From an uncultured bacterium (GTDB lineage Bacteria > Elusimicrobiota > Elusimicrobia > Elusimicrobiales > Elusimicrobiaceae): 64,000 nucleotides of DNA. Below are positions 6,187-46,021 of this stretch, piece by piece. Numbering within the stretch: position 1 is the stretch's first letter; every line of letters begins with the position of its first letter. The DNA is taken from assembly GCA_949291365.1 (NCBI GenBank), contig CASEVJ010000011.1, positions 23,661 through 87,660 on the forward strand, given 5' to 3'. A model generated the notes under the pieces. That model did no database searches. It saw only the letters and a program-made list of their open reading frames with translations, and had not been told where the DNA came from. The position numbers and the translations under genes were made by a program.

Positions 6187-7422
6187 ATGCAAATAAAAAC
6201 AACGGCGGGTGTTGTTTTGGGTATTCTTTTGGGCTGTGGGTGTTCTCTTTGGGCGCAGGAGGTGGTCAATCTGACCCAGCACACCGCCAAACACCAGCGC
6301 GTGCTGGCGCGGGCGCATTTATTACACCATGATTCCCTGCAATCTTTTGGCAAAGAGTATTTGGGCTGGGAAGAAGAGGTAACAAAACACCTCGGTCTGC
6401 AGGTAGGGGCCGATATCAGCTACCTGCTTCAGCGAGGTGCCCCCAGCGGCAAACAAACCTCTATCCAGGGCTACTATTACCCTTATGTTACCTGGGATTT
6501 ATTTACCGACACGCGTTTTGGCTCCGGACAGATTAATTTTAACTATACCTATATTCACTATTGGAGTATACAGGGCACCACACTGCAAAACCGCCTAGGT
6601 TTATTATCAGCACAAAACGACTACACGGCAAACCAAGAGATTTTCTCCCAGCTTTCTTACACCCATACCCTTCCGGGGAAAATGGACTGGCTCTCTTTTA
6701 CCATAGGCCAGTTCCCCCTCTATAACTTTGACGGCTCCAACTATTTAGACAATCAGCAAACGGCGCTGTTTAATTATGCCCTGTCCCAAAACGCTACCTC
6801 GGTTTATCCAATAGCCAGCTTTGGCGGTTATGTGCAGGCCGCCCCGGGCAGCTGGACGCTGGCCGCCGGCTGGCAGGATGCCTCTAATATAGATGGGCAG
6901 ACCATACAGTTAAATCACGCTTTTGGCGGGTATTACACATGGTTTGGCTCCATCTCCTACAGCCCCACTATTAAGGGGTTGGGTGCGGGGCAATATTCTT
7001 TTCTGTATTATTACCAGCCGTCCGTGGCGGATCAGCCGGGCATAGGGCGCGGCTGGTCGTTTAACGCCAGCCAAAATTTTGGCAAAAAGTGGGCCGTTTC
7101 CGCCCGGGCCAACGGTTCAGACGGAAACATCAACCCCATTAAAAATTCCTACGCGCTGGCGCTCTCTTATTTAAATCCGCTTGAGCGCAATGAATTGGAC
7201 GTCATCACGTTGGGGGCGGTATATAACCGCGCTGACGGAGAAGCGTTGGGTTATCCTGCCGGCTGGCGCAGCGGGGAAACGGCGCTGGAGTTGCAATGGG
7301 TGTGGGGCATAGGCAAAATGCTGACCATTACGCCTGATGTGCAAATTTATCCGCGGGCTGCTTTAGGCAGCGGCGACCATATAGTCACGGTGGCCGGCCT
7401 GCGGACGACAATTATGCTGTAA
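6187..7422 (+). CDS. aaxA: OprB-family outer-membrane porin, AaxA-like
   Basis: Signal peptide, aromatic-rich beta-strand pattern and OprB-like central segment; first gene ahead of aaxB and aaxC, as in Chlamydia. The symbol rests mainly on synteny. Confidence 0.7.
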   Translation: MQIKTTAGVVLGILLGCGCSLWAQEVVNLTQHTAKHQRVLARAHLLHHDSLQSFGKEYLGWEEEVTKHLGLQVGADISYLLQRGAPSGKQTSIQGYYYPYVTWDLFTDTRFGSGQINFNYTYIHYWSIQGTTLQNRLGLLSAQNDYTANQEIFSQLSYTHTLPGKMDWLSFTIGQFPLYNFDGSNYLDNQQTALFNYALSQNATSVYPIASFGGYVQAAPGSWTLAAGWQDASNIDGQTIQLNHAFGGYYTWFGSISYSPTIKGLGAGQYSFLYYYQPSVADQPGIGRGWSFNASQNFGKKWAVSARANGSDGNINPIKNSYALALSYLNPLERNELDVITLGAVYNRADGEALGYPAGWRSGETALELQWVWGIGKMLTITPDVQIYPRAALGSGDHIVTVAGLRTTIML

Positions 7423-7449
7423 ACATACTGGTCATAAAAGGAGAAAACT

Positions 7450-8061
7450 ATGCAAGATATTCAATTGGGAACACGCTATCCCACCTTGGCGTTTATTTCC
7501 GGCGGGGCCGGACAGGCAGAGGACGGCATTCCGCCGCAGCCGTTTGAAACCTTTTGCTATGACTCTGCACTCTTGCAGGCCAAGATAGAAAACTTCAACG
7601 TGGTGCCTTATACTTCGGTGCTGCCTAAAGAGCTGTATCAAAACATCGTGCCGGTGGACGCAGTGGCCGACCAGTTTAAACACGGCGCAGTGCTGGAAGT
7701 GATTATGGCCGGCAACGGCGCCAATATTACCGAGCACAAAGCCATTGCCACCGGTTTGGGGGTATGCTGGGGCAAAGACAAAAAAGGCAACCTCGTTGGC
7801 GGCTGGGCGGCGGAATATGTGGAATATTTTGACACGCCTATTGATGATGAAATTGCCAAAGGCCATTGTGAGATGTGGCTCAATAAATCCTTAAAACACG
7901 AGCTGGAAATCCGCGGCGTGGAAAAACACAGCGAATTTCAGATGTGGCACAATTACATCAACATTACCAAACCTTTTGCGTACTGCTTGACTGTAATGGG
8001 ATTTTTAAACTTCAAATTCGCGCCGCTGGCGACTGCCAAAGGCGTTAAACCGATGGACTAA
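7450..8061 (+). CDS. aaxB: Pyruvoyl-dependent arginine decarboxylase
   Basis: GTRYPTLAF...[35 protein letters not shown] closely matches chlamydial AaxB as I recall it; the Thr-Ser self-cleavage site is intact. Confidence 0.92.
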
Positions 8062-8079
8062 TGTTTTCTTGGGGGAGAT

Positions 8080-9549
8080 ATGGCAGAGAATAATGACTCG
8101 TCCGTTTCTGCGGTCAAAAAGCTGGGTATTATCGGTCTGGCCAGCATTGTTATCAGTTCTATGGTCGGGGGCGGGATTTTCTCCCTCCCCCAAAACATGG
8201 CCGCCGGCGCCAGCGCCGGGGCCGTGTTACTGGCGTGGATCATCACCGGGTTTGGTATGTATTTTATTGCCAATACGTTTAGCATTCTTTCCCGTGTGAA
8301 GCCGGATTTGACCGCCGGCATTTATATGTACACGCGGGAAGGGTTTGGCCCATATGCGGGCTTTACCATTGGCTGGGGCTACTGGCTGTGCCAAATTTTT
8401 GGCAACGTGGGGTATGCCGTTATCACAATGGACGCACTGAATTATTTTTTTCCGCCGTATTTCCAGGGCGGCAATAATTTGTGGTCTATTATCGGCGGCT
8501 CCATTTTGATATGGGTATTTAACTTTGTGGTGCTGCGCGGGGTGCGCCAGGCGTCGGTGATGAACATTATCGGCACGGTGGGCAAGCTGGTGCCGCTGTT
8601 CCTGTTTATCATTATTTTGCTCTTTAGTTTTCATCTGGATAAATTTGATTTTAACTTCTGGGGCAAAATGGCCGAAGGCGGCAAAAGCTTGGGCGGCTTG
8701 GGCACGCAGCTTAAAAGCACGATGTTGGTGACACTGTGGGCGTTTATCGGTATAGAAGGGGCGGTGGTGATGTCTAACCGCGCCAAAAGCCAAAGCGACG
8801 TCAGCAAAGCCACTATACTGGGTTTTTTGGGGTGCTTGGTGATTTATATTTTGCTTTCGCTGCTGCCGTTTGGGTTTTTAACCCAGCAGGAGCTGGCTTC
8901 TGTTGCAAATCCGTCCACTGCCGGCGTGCTGGAAAAAGTGGTCGGCCCGTGGGGTGCGTGGGTGATGAATATCGGGCTGGTGATAGCGGTGCTTTCCAGC
9001 TGGCTGGCCTGGACGATGATTACCGCCGAAATCCCGCAGGCAGCGGCGCAAAACGGCACATTCCCCAAGCAGTTTGCACGAGAGAATAAAAACGGCTCTC
9101 CCAGTGTGTCTTTGTGGGTGACCAGCATTCTCATGCAGTTGGCTATTTTAATGGTGTATTTCTCTAATAATGCCTGGAACACCATGCTTTCCATTACCGG
9201 GGTGATGGTGCTGCCGGCGTATATTGTCAGCGCGGCGTATTTGTGGAAGCTGGTAGAGGACGGCGAATACAGCCAAGTGGCCAAAAAGGGCCGTGCCGCG
9301 GCGCTGTTTACCTCTATTATCGGCACGGGATATGGCTTGTGGCTGGTGTATGCAGCGGGGCTGAAATATCTGTTCTTGGCGGTCATTTTTCTGGCGCTTG
9401 GGGTGCCGGTGTTTATCTGGGCGCGGCGCCAACAGCAAAACGGAAAACCCGTTTTTGCGGGCACAGGTGAAAAGGCGTTTATGTGTTTGCTTGTGCTGGC
9501 GGCCCTGGTGGCGGTGTATGTGTTTTCCCGCGGGCTAGTTAGTATTTAA
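8080..9549 (+). CDS. aaxC: Arginine/agmatine antiporter (APC family)
   Basis: [61 protein letters not shown]; many TM segments. Confidence 0.92.
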
Positions 9550-9560
9550 AAATCCTTGTT

Positions 9561-9590
9561 AAAAAACCCCGCTTTTAAGCGGGGTTTTTT
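9561..9590 (+). terminator. Intrinsic terminator of the aax operon
   Basis: CCCCGCTT-tt-AAGCGGGG followed by T6. Confidence 0.85.
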
Positions 9591-9812
9591 ATACATGTTT
9601 TCCCCCAACTCTCCGTTTGCCAGCCGGAAACTGAACACCTCCCTCACCAAAGGACAATTGTTTTATATAAATACTCTTGTGGCGGGCACAAAAAGATAGA
9701 CGGGAATTGTTAAATAAAAATCCCCAGGCATAAGCCCGGGGATTTCTCATATTGACAAAATATAGGGGATATGCAAGAATAAGCATATCTTTGTTTTGGC
9801 ACAGGAGGAAAA

Positions 9813-11378
9813 ATGAAAAAACGAATTATTTTGCTGGCGGCCCTGCTGGCGGTATTTTCCCCGCTTGTGTTGCAGGCGCAGTCCTGGCAAATGGTGGGTA
9901 CCCGCGCGATGGGTATGGGCGGCGCCGGCGTGGCTACCGCCTACGGGGCCGACGCACAATATTGGAACCCGGCCGGTTTGGCCACGGAAGAGGACGTAAA
10001 CGATGCCGGCTTTTCTCTGATGGCGGGGGCTAGTCTGCAGGCGGCGGACAATGTATTGGAGGGCGTGAGTGATTTAACGGACATGGCCGACCGCTACAAA
10101 AATTTGGCTTCTGCCATAAAAAACGGCTATACGGCTACAGCAAACGATTTGAGCACTATTTTTGAAGGTTTGGATGATATATCCAAATTAGTCGGCAAAG
10201 ACATGGGGGCCTTGGTGGACGCCCATGCCGGTGCGGGCCTGAAAATCAAAAATTTTGCCGTTACTGCGCGTGCACTGGGCAGTATGGCCATTCTGCCGGT
10301 GGTAGACACGAAAAACATTGGTTTTGCTGGTGCGGGAGCGGGGCTGCAGTTGGGCTCCACCGGCTCTGCCGGCAGCAACCAAACCTCGGCCGACCGCTTG
10401 GCCAGTGCGATAGACCGCTACGGCGTATTTGACGCGTTAAACCAATTGCTCGGCGGCGGTTATGCCAGCAGTCAGGAATTGGCCAATGCGTTTATCAATG
10501 CCGCCGCTGCAGCCGGCGGCACCGGCCAGCAGATTGCCGATGCAGTCAATGCCGCTGTGGGCAGCATGGGCGGCGCGGCAGAGATTATTAACCAAGCGGC
10601 TTCCTCTTCCGGCTCTTATGCGGATAACCAAACACTGGCCATGGCAGACGCAGCCACCTTTGCTGAAGTGGCGGTGGGCTACGGCACCCAGGTCATACCC
10701 GGCTTAAAGCTGGGCGCAAACCTGAAAGTTATTGACGGTTATATGGCCCAAAGCGGTGTGATGATTTTAAGTGACGACCAGGATATTAAAGACATCTTTG
10801 ACAAAGCATACGACAATAAAGAAAACAGCGTCAATATCGGTGTAGATTTAGGGGCGCAGTTTAATTTCTCCAGCGCGCTGGACAGAGAGGTGCTGTTTAA
10901 TCCCCAGTTGGGTTTAACCGTTAAAAACCTCAACGCCCCCAAGTTTGACCGTCCGTCCGCACCGTCGGATTTGGATCCGGCTATCTTGGCACACTGGAAT
11001 ACGGATAAATATCAGCTCAAACCCCAGGTGCGCGCCGGTGCAGCCATTAATCCGCTGCCGTTTATGACGCTGGCTATGGACTTGGACTTGACGGAAAACG
11101 ACACGCTGCTTGATGAAATCAAATCCCGCCAGCTGGCTTTGGGCGTGGAGTTTAACTTGCTGAACCGTCCCACATTCAATATCCCGCTGCGGTTGGGTTT
11201 TAACAAAAACCTTTCTTCCAGCGCAGTGTCGCCTTTTTACACGGTGGGGCTGGGCTTAAATATGGCGCATTTCCACCTGGAGCTGGCCGGAGCGATGAGC
11301 AGCGGAAGTACGGATATTGACGGTACCAGTGTGCCGGATTCCGCCGCCGCTTCTTTCATGCTGGGCTTTTTGTTCTGA
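9813..11378 (+). CDS. TraF-like/FadL-like outer-membrane beta-barrel protein
   Basis: Signal peptide; RAMGMGGAGVA and YWNPAGL motifs; barrel-like C-terminal half ending in Phe. Confidence 0.75.
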   Translation: MKKRIILLAALLAVFSPLVLQAQSWQMVGTRAMGMGGAGVATAYGADAQYWNPAGLATEEDVNDAGFSLMAGASLQAADNVLEGVSDLTDMADRYKNLASAIKNGYTATANDLSTIFEGLDDISKLVGKDMGALVDAHAGAGLKIKNFAVTARALGSMAILPVVDTKNIGFAGAGAGLQLGSTGSAGSNQTSADRLASAIDRYGVFDALNQLLGGGYASSQELANAFINAAAAAGGTGQQIADAVNAAVGSMGGAAEIINQAASSSGSYADNQTLAMADAATFAEVAVGYGTQVIPGLKLGANLKVIDGYMAQSGVMILSDDQDIKDIFDKAYDNKENSVNIGVDLGAQFNFSSALDREVLFNPQLGLTVKNLNAPKFDRPSAPSDLDPAILAHWNTDKYQLKPQVRAGAAINPLPFMTLAMDLDLTENDTLLDEIKSRQLALGVEFNLLNRPTFNIPLRLGFNKNLSSSAVSPFYTVGLGLNMAHFHLELAGAMSSGSTDIDGTSVPDSAAASFMLGFLF

Positions 11379-16184: not shown

Positions 16185-17099
16185 TTACGGAAACACTTCG
16201 TCTATCGTTTCCAGTACGGCCAGAAAACATACCCGTACGCCTGCGGCGGAGAGGGCGCCTCTTTCACCCATTTCCCGCCCGGGGTGTATATAATTGCGCT
16301 GCATGCGGGCGGCACGCAGCAGTTTGAGGGTATGGGGTTTGAGAAGGGCCTTCTCCGCGCAGAGCGCAATCAGTTCGGATAAATGGCAATCCAAAAGGGG
16401 CTGGGCTTTTTTCCCGGGCAGAGAAATTTTGGATATTTTGAGTTTTTGGCGCAGATGCCATGCCAGCAATATTTCCAGCATGGCACCGGACAAAGCCGCT
16501 ACGGCGTGCCCGTGCCCAAGCAGGTAAGCGCAGTCCAATTCATCAAAAATATCCAGCAAAGCGGCCCGGCAGCGGCGCGGAGCGGCGGAAAGCTGTTTTC
16601 TTTTTTGCAGATAGCCGGTTTGTTGTATTTCCTGCTCCGTCAGCGTGCGTGCCCGGCGCAGCCACGGCGGCGCTGCAAAGGCGTTGGGGGCGCGGCGTGG
16701 GCGCGGGGCCGGCTCGGCATATCGGCTTAAAGCCGCCAGCGGAGTATATGGGGGCAGATTATTTTCCATGCGCAGGTGCAGGGCGCCGGCCAGTTTGCGG
16801 GTTTGCGGTTCCTGCGGATTTGTTTTGAGCAACTGGCGCGCTATGTGCTGTGCCGGAGCGTTTAACCCCAAACAGACAAAAGACTGCAATAGATTTGGGT
16901 GAAGCAGGCGGTTTTTCTGCTTGTCCGGCGCATAAAGTAAAAGCAACTGGTAAAGCTGCACATTCCAGGTGTGTTTGCCCGCCAAACACACTTCTGTATA
17001 AAGCGCACCCAGCTCCTGTTCAAAGGGTTTTCCGGCCAGCAGGAGCCGTTTGATTTGTTCGGTACGTTTTTGCAATTGGGTTTTTAGTAAACGCGGCAT
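16185..17099 (-). CDS. Hypothetical protein with a TPR-like segment and C-terminal HEPN/DUF4145-like domain
   Basis: C-terminal GAMLEILL...LSELI...ARMQRNYIHP; start reassigned to ATG 17099 (MPRLLK) because the longer ORF overlaps the divergent MFS start. Confidence 0.6.
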   Translation of the reverse strand: MPRLLKTQLQKRTEQIKRLLLAGKPFEQELGALYTEVCLAGKHTWNVQLYQLLLLYAPDKQKNRLLHPNLLQSFVCLGLNAPAQHIARQLLKTNPQEPQTRKLAGALHLRMENNLPPYTPLAALSRYAEPAPRPRRAPNAFAAPPWLRRARTLTEQEIQQTGYLQKRKQLSAAPRRCRAALLDIFDELDCAYLLGHGHAVAALSGAMLEILLAWHLRQKLKISKISLPGKKAQPLLDCHLSELIALCAEKALLKPHTLKLLRAARMQRNYIHPGREMGERGALSAAGVRVCFLAVLETIDEVFP

Positions 17100-35000: not shown

Positions 35001-37739
35001 TTAGCGCGCCTGGACGGAATCTAACAGGTTTTTGGAGTCCGATATCGTGGGATCCAGGGTATTCGTAACCGTGTTGTAATTGAAGCGGTACGAAATTTTA
35101 AAGCTCTGCGGATTCTCGGGCGGTATCTTGACCAGAATGGAATAATTGTCCGGCTCTACGGCAGTGGTAATATTCCATTCAATCATCTGCTGGGCCGCCG
35201 GGTGACGCGAATTAATGAGCTGCTGCAGGGTTTGGCCGTTGGCTAAAGGGAAATTTTGGACTTGCGCCAAAATGGGATCCAACGGATTAGCTGCCGGCTG
35301 TACAGGCATCATTGGGGCATTTTGCCCATAGGCCTGCTGCGGCATGCCGGGCTGCATGGCTCCCGCCGGCATTTGTTGCTGGCCGGGCTGTAAGCCCGCC
35401 TGCGGCATTTGCTGGGTATAATCCTGCGGCATTGCTTGGGGCATATCCGCCGGGGCTTGTTCGGGCTGCTGCGGCAGCATTTCATTTAATTGCTCATCCA
35501 GGGCCTGTTGCTCTTGGGCAGAGGAAGAGGATTTGATGAAATTAAACTGCGGCGGCAGAATTTCCAGATATCCCAGCATGACGTAAATCAAGGCCAGGAT
35601 AATGACAGACACCGCTGAGCCCAACACAATTTTAGTACCTTTGCTGCTGCCGGGCTTAATGTCGGCCGCTTTCATGTCGTGCTGAGTGTTGATATCTAAG
35701 TCCGAATCCGTCAAATCCAAACGGTTAGAGTCACCCGGTTCTTTGACCATAGGCACAGTTTTGATGTCCATGGTGGCGCCGCGTTTAGTTTTAATCGTGT
35801 TTTCCAAAATTACTTTGGATACCGTCAAATCTGCCTCATCTTTTTTGGAAGTAAGGATTTCTTCCACGGCTTCTTCCTTCTCTTCCTCTTTCTTGTCTTC
35901 GGAGGCAGCGCCGCCGTATTCTTTAGGCAAGGCCGATTGAGCAGCCGCTCCGGATGTTTGGGCCGGCGGAATGAAATCCGAAATTAGATAGGTGGATCCT
36001 TCTTTTAATTCCACTTCCGTTAGGTCATTGGGATTTTGCGGAGCGGGGGCTTCTGCCAAGGTTTCCTGTTGAAAACTTTCCACTTCTTCAGCCGGTGATT
36101 GCGTTTCTTCCGGCAGCGGGAATTCCTCCGTAGGTGTGCGCTCAGTGAATGCTTCTGCTAAGTCTGCCTGGGAAATCAAACCGTCGTCTTCTCTTTGCGG
36201 CTCTATTTTTTTACCAGGCACCAACTCTTTAATAGTTTCCGTAATCTCTTTCTGTTCTCCGCCGACAGCTTCATTGGGGTTCATGGGAGTTACAGCGTCA
36301 GAAAGGACATTGCCGCCAAAGGGTGTCTGCGCCGGGGCATTGTCGGCAACTGCCGGCACCGGCTGCTCCGGTTCTTCAGTTTGGGCAATATTAAGCTGGG
36401 GCTGATCGCCCAAATTTAAATCCAGAGATTCTTTTTCCGCTGGTAAATCCATCGGGGCCGGTTCCGCCGGGGCCTGCGGCTCATCGGCCGTAGGCAAAGA
36501 CAAAGCCGGCTCATCAGCCGTAGGCAAAGACAAGGAGGGTTCCTGCGCCGGGGTCGGTTCCGCCGGGGCCTGCGGCTCATCGGCTGTAGGCAAAGACAAA
36601 GCCGGCTCATCAGCCGTAGGCAAAGACAAGGAGGGTTCCTGCGCCGGGGCCGGTTCCGCCGGGGCCTGCGGCTCTTCCGTTTGAGCAATACCCTCTATAC
36701 CGGAAAGAGCCGGTTTTTCGGCTTGTTCGGCTTCTTGTATGGCTTGTGCGATTAAATCATTTTGTTGTGCCGGAGCCGTGATTTCATTGATAATTTCTTC
36801 CCGTTTTTCTTCGGTAATTGGCTGGCCGGGCGCCTGTACTGCGGGCTGGGGTGGCTGTTGGGGAGCTTGCGGCTGCTCTTTATTTTCTTCTCCGTCTAAA
36901 GAGAGCACAATATCCGGCGTTTGTTGGGGCGCGGCGGGCTCCTGCGCGGCTGGTTCTTCAGCCGGTGTTTGCGGCTGGGGCTGCTGTGCAGGCAACGCGG
37001 CGTCCGTAGTTATTTTGGCCGAAGAAAGCAAATCCTGGAAAGTGGCTTCTTTTTCAGCTTCGGGCTGTACTTTGGCATTATACAGCGAATCCAGCGCCGA
37101 GCGCAGAATCAATTCTTCGCCGCCTTTTTCTGATAAATTTTCCGTTTTTCCAGAGCCGATTTCAATTTCATCTAAAAAGTCTACGGGTTTGGCCTGGGGG
37201 TTGGAGCTGGCCTGGGCAACCAGCTGTTCGGCATGATTTACCAAACTTTCCGTATTGGTGATGGTGGCGTCTTCATTGACGGGTTCGGATACGGGCTGGG
37301 GTGCCGGGGCAGAAAACGGCTGCGGCTGGGGAGCCGGAGCTGCTGCCGGAGCACTGTGGGCCGCTGCTTCTAAAGCGGCGTCCAGTTTTGTCTTAAGGCC
37401 TTCTATTTCCCGGGTTAAATTGTCAATCTTTTCTATTAAAATCTGCGTGACAGAGGTGTCCGCTACCGGCACCTGAGTAACCGGCGAAGTGGCCGTAACA
37501 TCGGCTGTTTTGCCCTGGATGGTATCCAGTTCTTCTTGGGTCAGCGGAGCGCGGGTCATCGTTTTGGATGCCTCGTCAAATTCAAAAATATTGGAAGCTT
37601 TCACCCATTCCTGGCTGCCGCCCTCTTCTATTTCTTCGGAGCAAATCAGCGTTTCCGGCGTAAAGCCGTCTAATGAGACGAGTTTTTCCTCGTCGTAGGG
37701 ACCGTCCACCTTATCATTAATATAAACCCAGTATCTCAT
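35001..37739 (-). CDS. Membrane-anchored protein: N-terminal GYF_2-like domain, long acidic Pro-rich linker, TM, C-terminal domain
   Basis: YWVYINDKVDGPY start; about 600 aa low-complexity E/P/A/Q; TM IVLGSAVSVIILALIYVMLGYL. Confidence 0.75.
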   Translation of the reverse strand: MRYWVYINDKVDGPYDEEKLVSLDGFTPETLICSEEIEEGGSQEWVKASNIFEFDEASKTMTRAPLTQEELDTIQGKTADVTATSPVTQVPVADTSVTQILIEKIDNLTREIEGLKTKLDAALEAAAHSAPAAAPAPQPQPFSAPAPQPVSEPVNEDATITNTESLVNHAEQLVAQASSNPQAKPVDFLDEIEIGSGKTENLSEKGGEELILRSALDSLYNAKVQPEAEKEATFQDLLSSAKITTDAALPAQQPQPQTPAEEPAAQEPAAPQQTPDIVLSLDGEENKEQPQAPQQPPQPAVQAPGQPITEEKREEIINEITAPAQQNDLIAQAIQEAEQAEKPALSGIEGIAQTEEPQAPAEPAPAQEPSLSLPTADEPALSLPTADEPQAPAEPTPAQEPSLSLPTADEPALSLPTADEPQAPAEPAPMDLPAEKESLDLNLGDQPQLNIAQTEEPEQPVPAVADNAPAQTPFGGNVLSDAVTPMNPNEAVGGEQKEITETIKELVPGKKIEPQREDDGLISQADLAEAFTERTPTEEFPLPEETQSPAEEVESFQQETLAEAPAPQNPNDLTEVELKEGSTYLISDFIPPAQTSGAAAQSALPKEYGGAASEDKKEEEKEEAVEEILTSKKDEADLTVSKVILENTIKTKRGATMDIKTVPMVKEPGDSNRLDLTDSDLDINTQHDMKAADIKPGSSKGTKIVLGSAVSVIILALIYVMLGYLEILPPQFNFIKSSSSAQEQQALDEQLNEMLPQQPEQAPADMPQAMPQDYTQQMPQAGLQPGQQQMPAGAMQPGMPQQAYGQNAPMMPVQPAANPLDPILAQVQNFPLANGQTLQQLINSRHPAAQQMIEWNITTAVEPDNYSILVKIPPENPQSFKISYRFNYNTVTNTLDPTISDSKNLLDSVQAR
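36454..36674. repeat. Intragenic tandem repeat, 96-nt unit, about 2.3 copies, with an internal 30-nt sub-repeat
   Basis: Units start at 36454, 36550 and 36646; they encode EPAPAQEPSLSLPTADEPALSLPTADEPQAPA. Confidence 0.92.
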
Positions 37740-42837: not shown

Positions 42838-42919
42838 GCGCGGGTGGCGGAATTGGTATACGCGTGCGTTTGAGGGGCGCATGCCTCACGGCTTGGGGGT
42901 TCGAGTCCCCCCCCGCGCA
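42838..42919 (+). tRNA. tRNA-Leu (anticodon GAG)
   Basis: GCGCGGG/CCCGCGC acceptor, discriminator A, TGCGT-TT[GAG]GG-GCGCA, long variable arm, GGGGG-TTCGAGT-CCCCC; CCA not encoded. Confidence 0.93.
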
Positions 42920-43257
42920 TGATTTATATCCGGCGACAGGCCGGATTTTTTATGTCTAAAGCGGGGCGAGTGTACAGGAACGATAAACGGGGAGCGCACA
43001 AACTGCTTTGTGCGCGTGGGGACGAGAAAGGCGGAGCGATGTTTTTGTTTGAGCGAAGCAAAAGGCAAAAACCGCGAGCCCGGCCTGCAGGCGTTTGCCG
43101 TCAGGCAAACGACCGGAAGGCGAGTTCAGTCCCCGCGCATGATTTATATCCGGCGGCAGGCCGGATTTTTTATGCCCAGATTTCCACGCGGGCGGGGTAT
43201 GGATTATGTTAAGAGCGGGGAGCGCACAAACTTCTTTGTGCGCGTGGGGATGAGAAA
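42911..43257 (+). repeat. tRNA-Leu 3'-end-associated direct repeat, about 220-nt period
   Basis: CCCCGCGCATGATTTATATCCGGCG(A/G)CAGGCCGGATTTTTTATG at 42911 and 43131; CGGGGAGCGCACAAACT(G/T)CTTTGTGCGCGTGGGGA at 42988 and 43216. Confidence 0.9.
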
Positions 43258-43945: not shown

Positions 43946-44242
43946 TTATTTGCCCGGAGTGACCGGAGCCGTAGGAGCCGGAAGATTTACTTTGTCTAAT
44001 ACAGACGAAGAGGCCTTGTTGTTATAAGACACCGTCAGCAAAATAGAAGTGATAAATAACAATACCGCCAAACCGGCAGTTAGTTTGTTTACGGCGTTAA
44101 AAGCGGTGGGGCTGGCAAAAATATTATCTGCGCCGGAGGCACCAAAAATCCCGGCGGCGGAACCTTTTCCGCTTTGCAATAAGATGAGCAAAATCAACAA
44201 AATGCACGCAAAATAGTGAATGATGAGAAGAAGCGTTTGCAT
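43946..44242 (-). CDS. secG: Preprotein translocase subunit SecG
   Basis: Two TM; ILLQSGKGSAAGIFG and NKLT; AGGAG RBS. Confidence 0.9.
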   Translation of the reverse strand: MQTLLLIIHYFACILLILLILLQSGKGSAAGIFGASGADNIFASPTAFNAVNKLTAGLAVLLFITSILLTVSYNNKASSSVLDKVNLPAPTAPVTPGK

Positions 44243-44533
44243 AAATTTTATATCTCCTGTAAAAGTAACGTATTTATTATACAATTTTTACCGCATATAT
44301 GTGTATGATACAGACGCAGCGGATAGAAATGACATGTGGATACCCTCGGCTATTTACATGAAATGTTTAGGTGTTTTGTTACAAGGTAATTTTCTGCAAA
44401 AATAATTTCTTCTATATGAGCAGGAAAGCCACTGGGTGAATGTGGTCTCTGCATTTGATTTCTGGCGTTTTTTGGGCCCGGGGCAAATAAAAATCCCCCC
44501 GCCTAAGTCGGAGGGATTTGTTTGTGTCAGGGG

Positions 44534-44793
44534 TTATTTTGTCAAAGACACAAGTCTGGGCAATTCTTTGGACAAAAATAGACCGGGCCCCAAACAACAG
44601 GGCCCGGTTTGTGTCAATAAGCTGGGGGAAGCCCAAAGACTTGCCCTATTTGGTCAATGCGACCAAACCCGGCAATTCTTTGGGCAAAAATAGACCGGGC
44701 CCCAACAATAGGGCCCGGTTTGTGTGTCTATAGCTGGGGGAAGCCCAAAGACTTGCCTTATTTGGTTAAAGCGACCAAACCCGGCAATTCTTT
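44534..44793 (-). repeat. Tandem array of pgk 3' ends with a 112-nt period (three 36-nt gene ends, two 76-nt linkers)
   Basis: Stop codons at 44758, 44646 and 44534; copies encode KELPGLVALTK*, KELPGLVALTK* and KELPRLVSLTK*; the linkers are near-identical and each has a CCGGGCCC/GGGCCCGG hairpin. Confidence 0.93.
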
Positions 44794-45951
44794 GCCTTCC
44801 ACAAATTCCATACTGGCGCCGCCGCCCGTGGAAACGTGCGAAAACGCTTTCTGGTCAATTTTGCCTTTCTTGAGCACATTGACGCTGTCGCCGCCGCCGA
44901 TGATGGAAATGGCGCCGTTTTTGGTGGCTTCAATCATCGCATTGGCAATTGCGTAGCTGCCTGCGGCAAAATTGGGGAATTCAAACACGCCCATAGGGCC
45001 GTTCCAGAAAATCGTTTTGCATTTGAGCAGTTCGTCGGCAAACAATTTCTCCGTCTTGGGGCCGATGTCCATGCCTTCCATGTCGGCGGGAATGGTGTCG
45101 GACACGACGGCTTCTGCCGTTTCGGAAAATTCTTTAGCTAGGCGGAAATCCACCGGCATCAACATTTTGACGCCTTTAGCTTCGGCTTTAGCCATAACCT
45201 GTTTGGCTTCTTCAATTTTGCTTTCATCAAGCAGGGATTTGCCCACTTCCATGCCTTTGGCTTTCAGGAAAGTATAGGCCATGCCGCCGCCGATGATGAG
45301 CACATTGACTTTGTCCAACAAGTTGTTAAGCAGCATAATTTTGTCGGACACTTTCGCCCCGCCAATGACGGCTGCAAACGGGCGGGCCGGATTATTGAGG
45401 GCTTTACCCAAAAATTCCACTTCTTTCTGCACCAAGAAGCCCATAGAGCCCGGCAGATATTGCGCAATAGCGCTGGTAGAGGCGTGGGCGCGGTGCACGG
45501 TGCCGAACGCTTCCTGCACAAACACTTCACCGTGTTTGGCCAGCTGTTTGGCAAATTCGGGGTCGTTCTTTTCTTCTTCGGGGTGGAAGCGCAGGTTTTC
45601 CAAGAGCACAATTTCGCCGTTTTTGGCGCTTTCCACTACTTTGTCAGCTTCCGGGCCGACGCAGTCTTTGGCAAAGTGCACGGGAACGCCGAACACTCTC
45701 TGCACTTCTTCCGCCACTGGGGCCAAGCTAAATTCCGGCGCTACTTTGCCTTTGGGGCGGCCCAGGTGGGCCATCAAAACGATGCGGCAGTTGTTGTCAA
45801 GCAGATGCTTGATAGTTTTTTCCGTGGCAACGATGCGTTTGTTGTTGTCCACTTTGCCGTCTTTGAGGGGCACGTTGTAGTCCACGCGCACCAATACTTT
45901 TTTGTTTTTCAAATCTACGTCCTGCACTTTTTTAATGCTGTCAAAATTCAT
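44758..45951 (-). CDS. pgk: Phosphoglycerate kinase
   Basis: RVDYNVP, HLGRP, LLENLRF, GGAKVSDK, WNGPMG, GGGDS, STGGGASMEF. Confidence 0.98.
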   Translation of the reverse strand: MNFDSIKKVQDVDLKNKKVLVRVDYNVPLKDGKVDNNKRIVATEKTIKHLLDNNCRIVLMAHLGRPKGKVAPEFSLAPVAEEVQRVFGVPVHFAKDCVGPEADKVVESAKNGEIVLLENLRFHPEEEKNDPEFAKQLAKHGEVFVQEAFGTVHRAHASTSAIAQYLPGSMGFLVQKEVEFLGKALNNPARPFAAVIGGAKVSDKIMLLNNLLDKVNVLIIGGGMAYTFLKAKGMEVGKSLLDESKIEEAKQVMAKAEAKGVKMLMPVDFRLAKEFSETAEAVVSDTIPADMEGMDIGPKTEKLFADELLKCKTIFWNGPMGVFEFPNFAAGSYAIANAMIEATKNGAISIIGGGDSVNVLKKGKIDQKAFSHVSTGGGASMEFVEGKELPGLVALTK

Positions 45952-46021
45952 TTCTTTCACCCCTTCTACATTAGAGAAAGCAAAGGCGGCTTTTGCAAGC
46001 CGCCTTTGCTTGTAAGACAGA

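Follow-up and report, generated by a model that had tools for sequence, protein, structure and literature searches.

The phosphoglycerate kinase gene (pgk) of the window (the whole stretch of 64,000 nucleotides analysed here, from a genome designated G000 that is 93% complete) is followed by a tandem array of short units, each of which contains a substitute for the final 12 pgk codons, a terminator-like hairpin and sequence complementary to both of its own ends. Judged on sequence comparison, the units are real, conserved and under compensatory change, and they appear to be gene-tail mini-elements whose end-joining fold is unusual and for which no enzyme is known. With modest confidence, we read the unit as a non-autonomous miniature integrative element (about 90-120 bp) at the pgk 3' end that would insert in the hexamer AAGAAY via a folded, end-joined intermediate, using an enzyme supplied in trans. 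The palindrome with which the analysis is concerned (44632..44684) sits in a 112-bp tandem repeat copying the last 12 pgk codons. The array comprises the following features.

44758..45960, minus strand: pgk, phosphoglycerate kinase, 400 aa, the target gene (open reading frame, NCBIfam PGK match).
44758..44793, minus strand: core 1, the live last 12 pgk codons (KELPGLVALTK*), read as supplied by unit 1 (sequence and relatives).
44787..44792, minus strand: AAGAAT, the putative join hexamer of the live site, in the Lys-Glu-Leu codons and within the pseudo-palindrome GGNA-N6-TNCC (join mapping).
44743..44757, minus strand: antisense arm of unit 1 (pairing energies).
44718..44725, minus strand: ACACAAAC motif, at the foot of terminator 1 (sequence comparison).
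44694..44719, minus strand: terminator-like hairpin 1 (fold).
44681..44693, minus strand: T-tract and tail of unit 1, source of the CCC in the palindrome (sequence).
44632..44684, minus strand: the palindrome itself, formed by tail 1, core 2 and arm 2 (fold energies, repeat search).
44646..44681, minus strand: core 2, a displaced synonymous copy of the pgk tail (sequence comparison).
44631..44645, minus strand: antisense arm of unit 2 (pairing energies).
44570..44614, minus strand: ACACAAAC motif, terminator-like hairpin 2 (44582-44608) and tail of unit 2 (sequence, fold).
44534..44569, minus strand: core 3, a decayed copy (KELPRLVSLTK*), head of a short-class unit (sequence comparison).
44474..44527, minus strand: body of the short-class unit, with ACACAAAC, terminator-like hairpin 3 (44491-44519) and a decayed tail antisense to core 3 (sequence, fold).
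43946..44242, minus strand: secG, the conserved downstream neighbour bounding the array (profile match, relatives).

Re-reading of the sequence confirmed the palindrome as it had been described in the earlier note, with 13 of 14 outer positions paired on the minus strand (a single A.G mismatch) and 7 of 7 inner ones, and the live pgk copy (44744-44796) indeed has GGC where copy 2 has CCC. The copy 2 hairpin had a minimum free energy of -29.7 kcal/mol as RNA (z -7.0; none of 200 dinucleotide shuffles was as good) and of -19.7 as DNA (z -8.0 in comparison to dinucleotide shuffles); the live copy also folded, more weakly (-21.3, z -3.8). The earlier note had made its reading depend on compensatory changes among homologues and on a fold better than that of codon-preserving shuffles. 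Compensatory change was found among homologues (see below) and, with the arm held fixed, copy 2 beat 98% of such shuffles (p 0.019), whereas the live copy was not significant (p 0.10). The suggestion that TTG in copy 2 perfects the inner stem has to be reversed, since TTG-ACC also occurs in this unit type in five close relatives (G021, G011, G054, G014, G093) and is the clade's common state, so that the live TTA, likelier the derived change, breaks the stem. As far as the contigs show, the array is no assembly artefact: two overlapping contigs of one run, possibly the source sample, span 44200-44824 with zero differences, a contig of a run from another study spans 44200-44613, also with zero differences, and arrays of the same build are present in many independent assemblies.

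Each unit combines spare codons, an antisense arm, ACACAAAC, a terminator and a tail, and 83 of 84 complete units measured 85-124 bp. Long units follow the order core, antisense arm directly 3' of the stop codon, spacer, ACACAAAC, GC-rich terminator-like hairpin, T-tract and tail, while short units have no arm and a tail that is antisense to the core; a terminator-like hairpin was present in every unit. The array in the window has two long units (1 and 2) and a decayed short one (3), whose type is intact and live in three relatives (G021, G014, G093). Because units 1 and 2 are of the same type, the sequence at 44632..44684 equals the junction of a circular unit. Across 119 displaced cores, similarity to pgk was lost sharply upstream of the Lys codon, and displaced and live cores within one genome differed by 395 synonymous and 33 non-synonymous codons, an excess inflated by the use of a pgk-like pattern to find the cores. 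The arm is missing altogether from many relatives, and the ACACAAAC motif also lies 5' of a few unrelated terminators in G000. REP-like palindromes (the GTCATCCTGAAC... and GTCATTCCCGA... types) were seen directly 3' of the pgk stop, replacing the arm, in several units at loci L066, L067, L064, L058, L074 and L157.

Evidence for an end-joining fold is that an arm matches the tail of its own unit. In unit 1 the proximal half of the arm pairs with the core start and the distal half with the unit's own tail, and the earlier note had proposed that the full outer stem needs a unit's own tail joined to its own core. This was borne out in a set of 107 distinct complete units, from which two duplicate metagenome loci had been removed; for the 84 units that have an arm, we measured the extra arm-core pairing contributed by the 9-base left neighbour. 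The arms of live units fitted their own downstream tail better than the real upstream sequence of pgk in 33 of 47 cases (7 ties, 7 worse), and in mixed arrays the own tail of displaced units beat the tail of the upstream neighbour in 14 of 16, although the units are mutually related and these counts overstate independence. Over 40 tail classes, the mean gain was -3.81 kcal/mol compared to -1.73 with permuted tails, with no overlap in 200 draws, and tail and arm changed together (GCCCA/TGGGC, GTCCA/TGGAC, GCCGGA/TCCGGC, CCAC/GTGG, ACCGA/TCGGT, GTCAAAA/TTTTGAC). Short units reached the same result by the other route, their tail pairing with the own core better than with the mean other core in 12 of 12 and better than with the next core in 10 of 12 (1 tie, 1 worse; RNA energies). 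About a quarter to a third of units were misfits (in a first pass, 19 of 72 were not above the mean foreign tail), several of them visible chimeras. In both classes, then, pairing brings the two ends of a single unit together. The joint is common to a circle and to a same-type dimer such as units 1-2 here and therefore does not prove a circle; that a unit passes through one is what we infer. A comparison of folding strands gave mismatch counts favouring antisense (AC 42, GT 19) and energies favouring sense (61:21, DNA), with an uninformative terminator control, and a MAFFT alignment of 12 junctions was poorly registered and set aside.

Pairing between core and arm tracked codon changes, with 80 of 99 long units beating codon shuffles. 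The inner 7-bp stem was better than codon shuffles in 56 of 99 long units and in the top 5% in 11, and we rejected it as a general feature; one subclass, in which the arm begins immediately at the stop, retains it (-5.5 or better in 9 of 15) across differing amino acids (LVALTK, LTALVK, LAALAK and, in two units, the one-codon-longer LVALETK). An alternative explanation is that the hairpin is an RNA feature, either a stabiliser of the pgk mRNA 3' end, as the earlier note had offered, or a source of read-through small RNAs processed like the tRNA-linked repeats (TLRs) of Escherichia coli. Core-arm pairing is present in live copies and follows the codons, every unit has its terminator-like hairpin, and TLRs are transcribed by read-through according to the available part of their description (PMC8144298). 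However, the distal partner of the arm is a tail 3' of the terminator, which was preferred over the true upstream mRNA sequence (33 vs 7) and which an mRNA stabiliser cannot account for; many relatives are without any arm, and an Rfam scan returned no family at gathering score in the array, tRNA-Leu alone reaching it. We regard an RNA role as very unlikely. In contigs from a single RNA run of a relative, coverage ended at 44745.

The point of joining was mapped from positions at which the own and the next core differ. Using DNA energies, the arm preferred the base of the next core at positions 0-1 (15:6), neither core at positions 2-4 (6:4) and its own core at positions 5-13 (19:6, 23:10, 21:10, 18:7; about 70%), which is a step and no gradient, and the switch between positions 1 and 5 places the exchange in the hexamer AAGAAY. 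This hexamer is the loop of the short-unit junction and also separates the halves of the pseudo-palindrome GGNA-N6-TNCC, which is dictated by the codons G-K-E-L-P. A second measure, concordance among units whose bodies are alike, agreed from position 10 on and was flat at 4-7, and stem position 4 was the usual mismatch, being paired in 42 of 78. An alternative explanation without a dedicated enzyme is an old tandem duplication of the pgk end and its terminator, possibly by ATTT microhomology, that has since been turned over continually by unequal recombination or slippage, with quasi-palindrome template switching copying the tail into the arm in same-type dimers. Consistent with this, same-type and alternating arrays are common (G097, G105, G014, L158, L165), 112 of 119 tails have an ATTT that precedes the core by 11-14 nt, close to the position (14) of the ATTT in pgk itself, our enzyme searches found none and the element was found at pgk only. 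Such turnover nevertheless predicts a gradient of exchange along the core, and breakpoints in the terminator that the units share, against the step seen at positions 1-5, and it fits poorly with the linkage between arm and own tail in the 14 of 16 mixed-array units. It also leaves unexplained the two structural solutions, the persistence in more than half of the genus and the near-identical bodies in distant hosts described below, and we consider it unlikely.

A pgk homologue was present in 40 of 41 genomes. Within the genus, the core pattern was found in 89 of the 95 other genomes, and 8 of 49 genomes of other genera matched once each, while a reversed control pattern gave zero matches. By hand count among the matches listed, about 52 of these 95 related gut-bacterial genomes have 2-6 copies of the last 12 pgk codons; 33 matches lay outside those listed, and ten of the genomes concerned were looked up singly. 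Every fetched core lay in the pgk-secG interval or at the end of a contig in that region. A tandem-core pattern applied to one genome per species returned 33 stretches, 30 of them titled Elusimicrobia (some Ca. Avelusimicrobium) and 3 'uncultured bacterium', and no repeat was found in seven genomes from other families of the order. Plain pgk ends with neither arm nor motif stand alone in three genomes (G052, G055, G057) and close arrays as the last member in four others (G023, G071, G079, G102). In close relatives, the order of units was short-long-short (G021), short-long-short-long (G014) or long-short-long-short (G011). Identity of pgk in the genus goes down to 82%, and non-coding bodies were 84-88% alike in hosts whose four-fold pgk sites were only about 40-75% alike; short units fell on several branches of a crude 210-bp tree. 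Together, the likeness of bodies across distant hosts and the scatter of short units suggest horizontal spread or strong constraint.

Further loci carrying these arms, for which the earlier note had recommended a search, were not found by BLAST, the core pattern or a terminator-module pattern. BLAST of the array region returned no other copies in G000, a scan of 1494 ORF ends in G000 gave no second array of the same build, and of the 47 matches to the terminator-module pattern, which came from 33 of 145 genomes, 45 adjoined a pgk core and two were on other contigs (G096:C20, G106:C19). Literature listings contained no account of pgk-tail repeats in this lineage. The pgk-secG interval often holds a pilin-like gene on the opposite strand between the array and secG, and in many relatives (for example L033, L042, L032) it is a hot spot for one to three such genes.

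If the unit is an integrative element, it would leave and enter as a closed circle whose joint is kept together by the folding of a single strand. The arm of long units would act as a splint across tail and core, and in short units the tail would pair with the core directly, leaving AAGAAY as a 6-nt loop. Strand exchange within AAGAAY would insert the unit, restore pgk and shift the old tail downstream, and later ordinary recombination between cores could duplicate, delete and mix units. A double-stranded circle of 100 bp is hard to bend, and for this reason the model leans on a single strand, which we likewise infer. The enzyme would be encoded off-locus, and our guess is a tyrosine recombinase provided in trans by a passing phage or integrative and conjugative element (ICE), given the 6-bp spacer inside GGNA/TNCC. 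The earlier idea of mobilisation as structured ssDNA or RNA thus stands in part: the end-joining fold and the compensatory change speak for it, but helpers of the attC/CTX, HUH or reverse transcriptase type do not.

Two tyrosine recombinases were identified in G000, best scored as XerC and XerD, and at least 16 array-bearing genomes have only two. Y1, reverse transcriptase (RVT_1), resolvase and IS110 were not found in G000 with positive controls. Y1 is patchy in the genus (30 of 96 genomes), as is RVT_1 (16 of 96, none listed at pgk), and neither HUH or reverse transcriptase helpers of the kind suggested earlier nor the notion of a retro-element mobilised by reverse transcriptase found support. 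Searches for IntI at E 1e-45 and for Y2 each gave 0 of 96 genomes, with the respective control silent too. By these searches, no enzyme family tested tracks the arrays. A conventional dif-like site (ATAA-N6-TTATGTTAA) was present in 41 of 61 genomes and lies 53 kb away in G000 (C11:14637); it has no motif in common with the pgk junction. Two genomes (G045:C7:22776-23271, G061:C27:2624-3138) have pairs of inverted dif-like sites that are separated by about 480 bp and resemble pdif modules, and in another a Y1 (IS200-type) transposase lies directly behind the array (G100:C1:111730-112095).

A further explanation is that the units are classical microCIMEs, that is, att-site scars of larger phage or ICE elements that integrated at pgk as dsDNA and lost their interior, with the inverted repeats as integrase binding sites rather than a fold. 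In the portions of the literature available to us (CIME definition, PMC5704250; PMC7563491), microCIMEs of Streptococcus salivarius are gene-less, measure 130-220 bp, occur in tandem at the 3' ends of the protein genes fda, rpmG and rpsI without an integrase of their own, and are found beside ICEs or IMEs with cognate integrases. The pgk units are likewise gene-less, tandem and flanked by direct repeats of the 3' end of a gene, and short units look canonical, with an 8-10-bp inverted repeat around a 6-bp spacer. In contrast, pgk arrays consist of micro units only: no integrase-bearing parent was seen at pgk by eye, from ORF starts, among 107 loci, of which 84 could be followed as far as secG, three scans of viral contigs gave 0 matches to attP, no parent was seen in metagenome contigs, and blastn of pgk against phage records gave no gene-end match among the 10 of 15 records listed. 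The prophage integrase near the array of L165 was rejected as a pgk parent as it sits at tRNA-Leu. The tail-side arm of long units varies over 40 classes yet stays complementary, which fits structure over binding sequence, and the uniform unit lengths are unlike independent deletions; complementary ends with compensatory change are also absent from the available part of the S. salivarius account (PMC7563491). We therefore judge scars of this kind to be quite unlikely. The element in L165 (about 6990-9900) is prophage-like, with a 366-aa tyrosine integrase-like ORF, and is inserted after tRNA-Leu.

Other known systems resemble the pgk units in part. TLRs follow tRNA or rRNA genes at ten loci, where the last 18-19 bp are repeated in one to five short units with terminators, and the origin of TLRs is unexplained in the portion of the description at hand (PMC8144298). 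The pgk array similarly consists of short units downstream of a gene, with a copy of that gene's 3' end and a terminator in each, but it is found at one protein-coding gene, repeats 36 bp of synonymous codons and has an end-joining arm. Integron attC sites, as set out in the part of the source available (PMC7439510), are imperfect hairpins with an RYYYAAC ... GTTRRRY R box and an outer arm that is variable yet complementary, which pairs perfectly only with the unit's own other end, and they are joined near the outer end. The outer stem of pgk units is also variable in sequence and complementary to the own other end, the join is near the outer end and there is an unpaired spot close to it (stem position 4). 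However, the pgk junction lacks the RYYYAAC box, as the earlier note had said of both attC boxes, and instead conserves AAG/CTT within AAGAAY; it has no conserved extrahelical G/T and no cargo gene, its target is the codons of a housekeeping gene, and attI was not found.

In CTX-type integration at dif, a folded single strand of attP rebuilds the recombination site for XerC/D in trans. The folded-strand idea and the presence of XerC/D in G000 are points of likeness, whereas dif in the genus is conventional and elsewhere, unlike the pgk junction; attC- or CTX-type machinery is thus not supported. HUH elements (IS200/IS605, REP, IS91) have a sub-terminal hairpin with a short conserved foot motif and follow a single-stranded circle model, and the pgk unit has a comparable hairpin and foot motif. 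To our knowledge, HUH elements do not duplicate 36 bp of target, nor do they stay at one locus, in contrast to pgk units, which were found only at pgk with a 36-bp duplication in a genome that gave no Y1 match.

Several other repeats were observed. In the window, a second repeat lies at 42911-43257 beside tRNA-Leu (42838-42919), with 42-44-bp segments at about 220-bp spacing, one of which overlaps the tRNA end, and similar sequence follows in relatives; a coding tandem repeat of 96 bp (2.3 copies) lies at 36453-36674. On the minus strand elsewhere in G000, an imperfect tandem repeat of about 65-130 bp follows an ORF end (C11, about 16500-16700; different build, no ACACAAAC) and a degenerating 48-bp tandem repeat lies at another (C5, about 159400-159690).

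Short repeats of gene 3' ends such as TLRs and microCIMEs are usually read as dead scars. The co-evolved pairing ends and the exchange in one hexamer point instead to active, structure-dependent movement of about 100 gene-free bases into a fixed site, and they provide a precise substrate and join point for tracing the enzyme. A tentative extension, possible though less than likely, is that there is a class of minimal, gene-free selfish elements of about 100 nt, TLRs included, whose own fold joins their ends (by self-splinting or with a read-through RNA copy of the arm as the splint), which would share an enzyme of host or phage, replace the tail of an essential protein gene and even alter its C-terminal residues so that the fold is preserved. 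If the favoured reading of the pgk units is true, they would constitute a very small site-specific insertion system that rewrites the C-terminus of a protein together with its terminator.
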